From NCBI GenBank assembly GCA_050173015.1, contig JBFXLE010000017.1:1-64000 (forward strand): a DNA stretch of 64,000 bases, given 5' to 3'. Position numbers and translations under genes: made by a program. Of the stretch, positions 4,647 to 5,741 are shown piece by piece; the stretch's first letter is position 1, and every line of letters begins with the position of its first letter. Source of the stretch: Calditrichaceae bacterium. GTDB taxonomy: Bacteria; Calditrichota; Calditrichia; Calditrichales; JBFXGD01. The notes beneath the pieces are model-generated. The model saw nothing but the letters and a program-made list of their open reading frames with translations, searched no databases and was not told where the DNA came from.

Positions 4647-5741
4647 TTAATCCCATGAATCCATCAGTTCCGCGGCAATGGCATACTCCGCTTTTGCCTC
4701 GTTATCATTACCGGTCAGTTTATAATATTCCGCCAGGGCAAGATGCGCGTCGGCGTAATCGCTTTCATACAGTTTCTTTTTAAATTCGATGGCCCGTATA
4801 AAATAGGTTTTTGCCTGTTCCGGTTGATTCTGGGCGATCGCGGTTTTTCCAAGAGCGAGGAGAATTTTGTGTTTGCCTTTGCGGTCGCGTTTCAGAGCTT
4901 CATGATAATCGCGTATGGCTTCGGATAATTTTCCGTTATTAAAATGGAGATCGGCGCGGTGGGAGAATATATAGAATGCCGGTCTTTTTTTCAGCGCCTG
5001 TTTATAATATTCATTCGCCCGGTAATAGTCCCCGCTTGCCGCGTAAACCTGGCCGAGCAGATCATCGATATACTCTTTTTGGGGAAATTTTTTATCTAGT
5101 TCCAGCAGTATCGCAATCGCTTCCGGGTATTGTTTTAAACCGTAAAACCCTTTGGCCAGATTATAATTTTTGAACAGCGGATCGACATAATCGCGTTGAT
5201 CTTCCGCGATTATTTTTTTGAAGCAGGCGATGGAATGATTGAATTTATGCAGATCGTAGTAGCATTTACCGAGATAGAAGATGGATTTATAGAAATATTT
5301 GGCCTGGGTTTTCATAAACTGCGGATTTTCGGATGCCTGATACACTTTTATGGCCCGGGTAAAGGTTTCCAGCGCGGTTTTGGATTTGAGCATATTGAAC
5401 TGCGCCACCCCCTTACGGTAGAGACAAACCATATAGTCGGGAAAAATTTCCAAAGCCTGGTCAAACCACTCGATGGCCTCCTTCCACTCTTTTTCCATAT
5501 AATCTATATACCCCAGACAGTAGTGAGGCTGGGCGCGGTTCGGTTCCAGCTCCAGCCATTGTTTGTAGCAATAGCGGGCCTCATCTAAGCGGTTTAACTG
5601 GCTGTAGGCAAACCCGAGATTTGAAAACACCTCGCTGCCGGCCGATCCGCTCTCCGCGACGGGTTTCAGATACTGTACAATTTCCATCCAGCGGTTCAGT
5701 TTTTTCAGCTTATCAACGGTCTCCATAATATTTACAGTCAT
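4647..5741 (-). CDS. Tetratricopeptide repeat protein
   Basis: Many TPR units (NLGFAYSQLNRLDEARYCY, LGYIDYMEKEWKEAIEWF, LGKCYYDL, LGQVYAASGDYYRANEYY). Start set at ATG 5741 behind GGAAGGAG; the ORF is open to 5861. Confidence 0.9.
   Translation of the reverse strand: MTVNIMETVDKLKKLNRWMEIVQYLKPVAESGSAGSEVFSNLGFAYSQLNRLDEARYCYKQWLELEPNRAQPHYCLGYIDYMEKEWKEAIEWFDQALEIFPDYMVCLYRKGVAQFNMLKSKTALETFTRAIKVYQASENPQFMKTQAKYFYKSIFYLGKCYYDLHKFNHSIACFKKIIAEDQRDYVDPLFKNYNLAKGFYGLKQYPEAIAILLELDKKFPQKEYIDDLLGQVYAASGDYYRANEYYKQALKKRPAFYIFSHRADLHFNNGKLSEAIRDYHEALKRDRKGKHKILLALGKTAIAQNQPEQAKTYFIRAIEFKKKLYESDYADAHLALAEYYKLTGNDNEAKAEYAIAAELMDSWD

Follow-up and report, generated by a model that had tools for sequence, protein, structure and literature searches.

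For most CRISPR systems it is not settled which polymerase mends the duplicated repeat once a spacer has been integrated, and the best handles on this step are the dedicated polymerases at adaptation modules, namely reverse transcriptase (RT)-Cas1 and the CAPP primase-polymerases. CAPP_A of Marinitoga piezophila consists of a tetratricopeptide repeat (TPR) domain at the N-terminus (aa 1-100, three repeats), an AEP Prim-Pol domain, and a PriCT-like C-terminal domain (CTD); MpCAPP binds Cas1, and CAPP was proposed to serve adaptation (Zabrady et al., 2021, PMC8211822). Among A-family polymerases, CCPol depends on a partner protein, MP (Bebel et al., 2020, PMC7581432), and the UG9 reverse transcriptases work with a PolA (Mestre et al., 2022, PMC9226505; RTasPolA in PADLOC). 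The TV-Pols are minimal PolA-like cores on mobile elements, tied to primases and D5-like helicases, and one of them, from Gemmata, has a Zn-binding domain in place of the thumb (Iyer, Abhiman and Aravind, 2008, PMC2579912). In addition, row 43 of Table S3 of Altae-Tran et al. (2023, Science, PMC10910872) names a CRISPR-associated system '(TPR + DNA polA)', described as adaptation-module-linked, with the representative JACDJC010011245, 1712-3152. Here, we analyzed a TPR gene that lies directly upstream of a polymerase gene, cas1, and cas2 in a 64,000-nt stretch of DNA from a Calditrichaceae bacterium (contig JBFXLE010000017.1, positions 1 to 64,000, of assembly GCA_050173015.1; hereafter, the window). 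We find that, in a Cas1-Cas2 operon, the TPR protein obligately accompanies an A-family polymerase that has no thumb and bears a HEAT-like domain, and we consider it fairly probable that it is a dedicated non-catalytic subunit, a scaffold, of the Pol-Cas1-Cas2 adaptation machine of a type III-D system.

The window has the arrangement of the catalogue entry, in which a TPR gene and a PolA-like gene adjoin each other beside cas1-cas2 and a CRISPR array. The gene pair is the same by label, and the representative gene measures 1441 nt versus 1440 nt here; from this agreement, which is one of label and gene length only, we infer that the window module belongs to the '(TPR + DNA polA)' family. The association is already catalogued. 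In its readable text and supplements, the entry is a catalogue item without domain analysis, partner logic, or experiment; we found no mechanistic study of a TPR-PolA-Cas1 module in the literature, the main text of the 2025 classification paper does not contain 'PolA', and the module is unmentioned in the CRISPRicity preprint and in the type III accessory survey. The likeness to CAPP is that a polymerase and a TPR module are encoded with cas1-cas2 in a type III locus. However, CAPP has an AEP catalytic fold, a fused TPR domain of ~100 aa, and a PriCT CTD (PMC8211822), whereas the window encodes a family A polymerase with a HEAT-like N-terminus and, 45 nt upstream of it, a separate TPR protein of 364 aa; the polymerase has no AEP catalytic domain and no PriCT match in Pfam.

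The longest open reading frame (ORF) for the TPR protein, 4647..5861 on the minus strand, encodes 404 aa, and an ATG at 5741 gives the 364-aa form. GGAAGGAG precedes this ATG, and 4647-5741 is likely the gene because it is to the 364-aa form, from its residue 1-9 onward, that the orthologues align, and not to the 404-aa form. The stop codon (TAA, 4649-4647) and the next ATG on the same strand (4601-4599) leave the gap of 45 nt. Pfam finds only families of the TPR clan in the protein (TPR_2, 6.8e-38, 126.1 bits against a cut-off of 27; TPR_1, 7.9e-32, 108.2 bits; TPR_12, 1.8e-21, 76.5 bits), and the AlphaFold2 (AF2) model, with a mean predicted local distance difference test score (pLDDT) of 95.8 and a predicted template modeling score (pTM) of 0.87, is an uninterrupted row of 20 helices that form 10 TPR-like pairs and nothing more. 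The N-terminus, MTVNIMETVDKLKK, is helical from residue 2 in the model, and sequence inspection, made without a dedicated signal-peptide prediction, found no hydrophobic stretch there. The structural neighbors of the model (the OGT TPR domain, designed consensus TPRs, CTR9, and BBS4) are protein-binding scaffolds. The first-pass annotation, made from the sequence alone, had described an all-TPR protein that ends 45 bp before a same-strand polymerase followed by cas1 and cas2, and this description holds in every part, with the CRISPR array coming next. At E ≤1e-20 the TPR family comprises 26 proteins of 266-421 aa, one of which is named 'tetratricopeptide repeat protein [Caldithrix abyssi]', as the matches of the polymerase include 'DNA polymerase [Caldithrix abyssi]'. 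Conservation peaks at residues 41-120 and 281-300, including a motif around R285, D286, H291, and K292. The PADLOC 'TPR' model PDLC01172 scores 111 bits on the protein versus 536 bits for the profile of its own family, and we regard this match as generic repeat similarity, not membership.

The pairing of the TPR protein with the polymerase is conserved across genomes. A scan of species-representative genomes with the single polymerase query confirmed no relative among 69 pattern matches, and 15 loci came from a scan with the family alignment. In 13 of them, pol has an orthologous TPR gene directly upstream on its strand (12 by Pfam, and L003 by tblastn); of the remaining two, L002 has only 227 nt of upstream DNA, and L015 has a different architecture. 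cas1 directly follows pol in 12 of the 15 loci, and L002 and L009 end after pol. Four loci came from a metagenome scan: two carry TPR-Pol-Cas1-Cas2 (L031 and L033), one starts inside pol (L032), and one duplicates L001 (L030). TPR is upstream of pol in all 15 loci that have an intact HEAT-type polymerase and readable upstream DNA. The TPR orthologues are collinear over their full length with 29-56% identity, and the loci are spread over Calditrichota, Caldisericaceae, Deferribacteres, Phycisphaerae, and Cytophagia, indicating by this spread over several phyla that the module moves as a unit. TPR proteins as a class are frequent, the 86 genomes of the window's phylum having 44-241 first-look candidates each; the adjacency is nevertheless far beyond chance, because it is one orthologous family, collinear over its full length, that stands upstream in 15/15 informative loci. 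In the same 86 genomes, which overlap those behind the 15 loci so that the two counts are not independent, 15 have Pol and 16 have a member of the TPR family, with 14 having both. The three singletons are all contig-end effects: the contig of G056 is that of L004, in which TPR is cut at the contig start, the contig of G055 ends 72 nt past TPR, and that of G005 is a 500-nt fragment. In 12 of these 14 genomes, TPR and pol are neighbors on one strand; in G016 and G076, they are on separate contigs. The conserved neighborhood of TPR, PolA, and cas1, which had been put forward as a check on the association, is what these scans found.

The four proteins are also inherited together. When the distance matrices of TPR, Pol, Cas1, and Cas2 are compared with each other for 13 loci, r is 0.81-0.93 (Mantel p 0.0002; L001, in which TPR is split, was left out), and TPR reaches r 0.91 with Pol and r 0.93 with Cas1. 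The TPR and pol genes overlap by 4 nt in L007 and L011, and in the window the pol stop and the cas1 start overlap as TAATG, with an AAGGAGG ribosome binding site (RBS) ahead of cas1; both overlaps suggest translational coupling. It is this strict pairing, together with the co-inheritance and the operon structure, that leads us to read the TPR protein as a scaffold subunit; its binding to Pol and/or Cas1-Cas2, and the step of acquisition at which the polymerase works, are inferences. Precedents are CAPP, which binds Cas1 and carries a TPR domain, and CCPol with its partner MP, and a bridge from the TPR protein to Cas1-Cas2, as raised in the first-pass annotation, is plausible. In the proposed mechanism, TPR, HEAT-PolA, Cas1, and Cas2 make up, in this order, a spacer-acquisition operon with leader and array behind it, and the 10-repeat TPR superhelix would act as a protein-protein scaffold that holds the minimal A-family polymerase in a complex with the Cas1-Cas2 integrase or recruits it there. 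The polymerase would carry out short-patch synthesis, filling the two single-stranded repeat gaps left after spacer integration, and might also complete or copy prespacers. The module is a compact, purely bacterial four-protein set for testing repeat repair, and the strict TPR-Pol pairing calls for studying the polymerase together with its companion. If the TPR protein does tether a distributive, exonuclease-free PolA to Cas1-Cas2, full-site integration and repair could be reconstituted in vitro, and TPR-Pol-Cas1-Cas2 might be useful for molecular recording.

Several observations weigh against the scaffold reading. The spacing between TPR and pol varies and reaches ~400-570 nt in L006, L012, G058, and G063. 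TPR copies are damaged in L001/G019 (a frame break or stops; C174 23547-24616), the TPR of L011 (5820-6902) has one in-frame stop, and the pol of G066 (C303 4579-5990) is split into two frames; these damaged copies could be decay or assembly errors. Linkage of the genes, with no physical contact between their products, would account for the co-inheritance statistics as well. Searches of longer proteins and of all lengths found no protein in which TPR is fused to Pol, PrimPol, or Cas1, although word-based searches of long proteins are weak evidence of absence. Finally, one of the three co-folding runs of Pol with TPR scored 0.00, and the runs have no contacts in common. The three runs gave 0.00, 0.45, and 0.38 (median 0.38) versus 0.00 for the best of three controls, with an agreement between runs of at least 0% of contacts and a partner pLDDT of at least 86, which we take as weak support. 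Of 157 solved complexes, 116 reached the mark used, as did two of 215 mismatched pairs; with scores of 0.60 or below it was reached by 18 of the 157 solved complexes and by both of the passing mismatches. Co-folding had been suggested as a check of the interaction, and the support from it is weak.

The first-pass annotation saw in this arrangement a split analogue of CAPP. Its premise, that some CAPP proteins carry a fused N-terminal TPR domain, is correct for CAPP_A of Marinitoga (PMC8211822), and the analogy appears to hold for function, as the window module resembles CAPP in logic and not in fold or architecture. Beyond function, the two differ in size and gene arrangement, the window has PolA in place of AEP, and no fused forms appeared in the searches. 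A true homologue of the CAPP TPR domain, related to it by gene fission or fusion, is suggested by the common position of the two TPR modules 5' of a polymerase-cas1-cas2 unit in type III loci, and we consider it extremely improbable: three repeats in ~100 aa stand against 10 repeats in 364 aa, and the search of longer proteins returned generic TPR proteins of at most 35% identity, with no polymerase, Prim-Pol, or Cas1 domain among the 120 matches listed of 154. The repeat consensus dominates similarities of this kind, and common descent is not demonstrable from them without a specific common signature.

In the polymerase, DNA_pol_A is the sole Pfam match (8.8e-13; 48.4 bits versus a cut-off of 34.3), and a PDB profile search matches Bst Pol I with E 1e-17. 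The AF2 model (pLDDT 91.6, pTM 0.56) shows helical repeats at residues 1-197, a disordered linker at ~201-217, and a compact polymerase domain at ~218-479. The exonuclease domain is absent, the N-terminal ~200 residues being helical repeats and not an exonuclease fold. This N-terminal domain is HEAT-like, with precomputed HEAT_2 matches in 3 of 38 homologues and Atlas structural neighbors at a TM-score of ~0.5, which are a lead only, and it carries the conserved arginines R50, R92, R105, R107, R109, R173, and R174. Superposed on Pol I, Pol theta, Pol nu, and T7 polymerases, the polymerase domain gives a Z of ~23 (VIA-align, residues 213-479) and a root-mean-square deviation of 2.7-2.9 Å; ~256 model residues align over a ~408-residue span of Klenow (514-920) or Bst Pol I (460-868). 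In the profile alignment to the Bst fragment, positions 216-239 correspond to 180-203 and positions 248-470 to 315-569, and the thumb is absent because ~110 residues of Bst Pol I are replaced by ~9; a single helix (222-232) precedes the beta-hairpin in the model. The missing thumb that had been noted from the sequence is therefore seen in the profile alignment, the model, and the superposition alike. With neither a thumb nor a proofreading domain, the polymerase is probably distributive. It belongs to a family in which 37 of 38 matches have E of 1e-140 to 5e-50 and 386-496 aa, mostly from Calditrichota and uncultured lineages, and 50 proteins in a library of 1.84 billion representatives score ≤1e-30; a word-based search of this library, which is weak evidence of absence, found no HEAT-type polymerase of >500 aa. 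The same genome encodes a separate full-length PolA (547 bits, 913-aa frame), indicating that the cas1-adjacent polymerase is an additional, specialized enzyme.

The missing thumb raises the question of whether the TPR superhelix grips DNA directly, supplying duplex hold and processivity to the thumbless polymerase as a thumb or clamp substitute. Besides the loss of the thumb itself, the basic residues of the TPR protein speak for this: K or R occurs in ≥80% of the sequences at 17 positions, with a cluster at K284, R285, R287, K290, and K292 (the K284-K292 segment), where H291 and K292 are invariant in the family. However, the protein is nearly neutral overall, with 53 K/R versus 49 D/E, and its structural neighbors bind proteins. 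In addition, the closest relatives of the polymerase domain lack a thumb just as it does and carry DnaG instead of TPR or HEAT, and the polymerase has its own arginine-rich helical-repeat domain that could serve in cis. The replacement of the thumb by TPR, which the first-pass annotation had entertained, is on these grounds not favored, and we consider it unlikely.

The active site of the polymerase is well conserved. In 32 sequences, the residues for catalysis and DNA contact are invariant: R253 (TGR hairpin), Q405, and G406, D285 and E290 of motif A ('DYxxIEP') and D438 and E439 of motif C ('FDE'), which align to the Bst Pol I motifs, and R328 and K332 of the O-helix (RxxxK). The aromatic positions of the O-helix (F and Y of RxxxKxxxFxxxYG, at what we take to be their places in the Klenow numbering) are N336 and N340 in ≥90% of the sequences. 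From these residues, the polymerase is probably active, and its nucleotide handling is probably unusual. They also bear on another role for the pair, in which the TPR protein would give the minimal PolA the ability to prime de novo, or to copy single-stranded DNA (ssDNA) or RNA into prespacers, making a two-subunit primase-polymerase or template-switching enzyme. A precedent is CCPol, an A-family polymerase that primes only together with MP (PMC7581432). CCPol-MP of SCCmec and the window module both combine a minimal, exonuclease-less A-family polymerase with a small dedicated partner encoded alongside; the two differ in that MP is a small OB-fold ssDNA binder encoded downstream and in that CCPol-MP belongs to a mobile-element replication module with a helicase, not to CRISPR. 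Other type III systems recruit RT or AEP Prim-Pol to Cas1 (PMC8211822; PMC10415136), and the nearest relatives of the polymerase domain carry a DnaG primase, which add to the case, as do N336 and N340. On the other hand, the fusion of a separate primase in these relatives suggests that priming is not done by the polymerase domain, E290, at the ribose-discriminating glutamate position, is kept and argues for the use of dNTPs, and the TPR protein is no OB-fold ssDNA binder of the kind described for MP (Rice, 2022, bioRxiv 10.1101/2022.12.02.518924). We regard de novo priming or template switching by the pair as quite unlikely. A broader proposal also seems unlikely to us, in which TPR and HEAT-PolA are the two subunits of a polymerase dedicated to CRISPR and docked on Cas1-Cas2, with TPR conferring an activity that the thumbless core lacks, such as template delivery, priming, or RNA- or ssDNA-templated synthesis. 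Type III-D systems could then make and install spacers without host polymerases, and adaptation would have recruited a polymerase independently for a third time, after RT and AEP Prim-Pol, with a mobile-element DnaG-PolA replicase as its source.

The nearest relatives of the polymerase domain are proteins of 594-744 aa (E 1e-49 to 1e-65) with an N-terminal DnaG CHC2 zinc ribbon. Seven DnaG-PolA fusions (P0086, P0091, P0093, P0094, P0100, P0101, and P0102) have CHC2 in 7/7 and Toprim in 3/7; they are thumbless like the CRISPR polymerase and are without TPR and HEAT. The 'NxLINGG' O-helix is common to the fusions and the CRISPR-type polymerase, and so is the N336/N340 replacement. HEAT-type polymerase domains score ≥258 bits, DnaG-type domains 146-228 bits, and all other PolA ≤96 bits, and a quick tree groups the HEAT and DnaG types apart from 11 other PolA; the groups are defined by how they score against a profile of the CRISPR group, which makes the comparison partly circular, and the tree does not resolve the direction of transfer. 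In L015, from an Isosphaeraceae genome and the one locus that gave a context for the fusions, the DnaG-Pol (~6000-7840) lies between a DUF3987 gene and a phage-integrase gene with no cas genes, and it is spread over three reading frames, perhaps through indels of the assembly. This locus looks like an integrative-element replication module, and DnaG-PolA like a primase-polymerase of integrative elements. Among viral contigs, only ordinary phage PolA of 22-28% identity was returned, and a tblastn search of plasmids with P0091 returned DnaG genes only. The mobile context of L015, with DUF3987 and an integrase, is similar to that of the TV-Pols. By their description, with which alone we compared them, TV-Pols keep a two-helix thumb and need profile methods for their link to PolA (PMC2579912), whereas the window polymerase passes the Pfam DNA_pol_A cut-off. 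With the UG9 RT-associated PolA, the window polymerase has in common that a small family A polymerase is recruited to a defense system, and PADLOC RTasPolA gives a partial match (E 1.9e-12, residues 229-423); this match is weak compared with the 613 bits of its own family, and the partner there is the UG9 RT, with no Cas1 and no TPR. The thumbless PolA core, common to the window polymerase and the DnaG-fused mobile-element replicases, would also show the small size at which an A-family polymerase can still work.

The genome to which the window belongs measures 4.3 Mb and is 97.5% complete, and the window opens its contig C17. The 37-nt repeat of its array has 21 more copies on contig C38, beside type III-D-like effector genes: a Cas10-like gene (TIGR02577, 3.1e-15) and Csx10 (4.4e-20), both below the cut-off, Csx19 (57.8 bits, cut-off 35), Csx7 (128.3 bits, cut-off 108), and a TIGR03986 RAMP (301 bits). 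The Cas10-like gene, Csx10, Csx19, and Csx7 together, with the repeat in common, place the module in a type III-D CRISPR-Cas system, whose adaptation and effector parts are on two contigs of the assembly. The C38 locus (L116, 4182-16495) encodes a short Cas10-like protein of 540 aa, Csx10, Csx19, and Csx7-type RAMPs next to the second array of 21 repeats, and the TIGR03986 RAMP has 749 aa with a gRAMP-like segment.

The genes upstream of TPR bear on whether the TPR protein binds effector or CARF proteins in place of the polymerase and so couples or gates adaptation. In the window and seven other loci, the operon lies directly downstream of CARF and ring-nuclease genes, the Cas_NE0113 gene being upstream of TPR also in L001, L003, L005, L006, L007, L008, and L011, and in Craspase, TPR domains are reported to partner type III-E effectors. 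The upstream genes, however, vary between loci (Cas_NE0113, a Cas4-like gene in L010 and L013, and others) while Pol-Cas1-Cas2 downstream is constant, and the TPR distances track those of Pol and Cas1. We consider such a regulatory link very unlikely, and the scaffold of the Pol-Cas1-Cas2 machine remains the role that we favor. A PD-(D/E)XK nuclease gene (Pfam PDDEXK_1, Cas4-like) lies directly upstream of TPR in L010 (1202-2158) and L013 (1-648), which suggests a five-gene variant of Cas4-like, TPR, Pol, Cas1, and Cas2 genes in these loci.

The features of the window locus are listed in Table 1. The ORF listing places every gene at the left end of the window on the minus strand. The length of Cas1 in the window matches that in the other loci (324-327 aa). 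The orientation of the array presumably follows that of the operon strand given in the table, as the reverse-complemented repeat ends ATTGAGAC, which resembles the usual 8-nt crRNA tag.

Table 1. Features of the adaptation operon, the CRISPR array, and the genes upstream of them in the window
Feature	Position	Strand	Description	Basis or remark
TPR gene	4647..5741	-	364 aa, ~10 TPR-like repeats; first in the adaptation operon	ORF, RBS, Pfam, AF2, orthologues
TPR-pol intergenic spacer	4602..4646	-	45 nt; GGAGGG ahead of ATG	Read from the sequence
Polymerase gene	3162..4601	-	479 aa; HEAT-like N-terminus and family A palm/fingers	Pfam, PDB profile, AF2
cas1	2185..3162	-	325 aa from ATG 3160-3162	Pfam Cas1 2.7e-79; TIGR00287 1.5e-73
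cas2	1908..2213	-	101 aa, longest frame	Pfam CRISPR_Cas2 4.5e-22; TIGR01573 1.4e-15
Presumed leader	1654..1907	-	cas2 to first repeat	Assigned from position alone
CRISPR array	246..1653	-	19 identical 37-nt repeats, spacers ~35-43 nt	Reaches nearly to the contig start
cas6	12045-12965	-	Upstream of the TPR gene	Pfam, NCBIfam
Card1-like CARF nuclease gene	10797-11912	-	Upstream of the TPR gene	Pfam, NCBIfam
CARF-like protein gene	8800-10536	-	578 aa; upstream of the TPR gene	Pfam, NCBIfam
Cas_NE0113/Csm6-type ring-nuclease family protein gene	7677-8735	-	Upstream of the TPR gene	Pfam, NCBIfam

Scans for promoters and terminators stayed at the chance level (18 versus 12.2 expected and 9 versus 6.9 expected, respectively). 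The cas region was found at 95-100% identity in four runs from four studies, the best of which may be the source sample. Among the single-base differences listed (22 more are unlisted), 13 are synonymous and one is non-synonymous in Cas1, nine and one in Cas2, one and two in TPR, and four and three in Pol, the last two counts being too few to judge selection. A DUF4258 gene (7269-7592) lies between the Cas_NE0113 gene and the TPR gene, and one is placed likewise in L006 (4636-4950). Between this gene and TPR, at 5854-7268, there are small unannotated ORFs, including a short hydrophobic one at ~6160-6295 on the minus strand. The ORF adjoining cas6 (13180-13938, minus strand, 252 aa) has no match in Pfam, NCBIfam, or PADLOC. 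At the other end of the locus, the first 83 nt of the window (1-83) are repeated at 191-273 with 99% identity, and the second copy runs into the leader-distal first repeat of the array; this segment, 1-273, is the start of the contig, and rearrangements are seen there in contigs from other runs.

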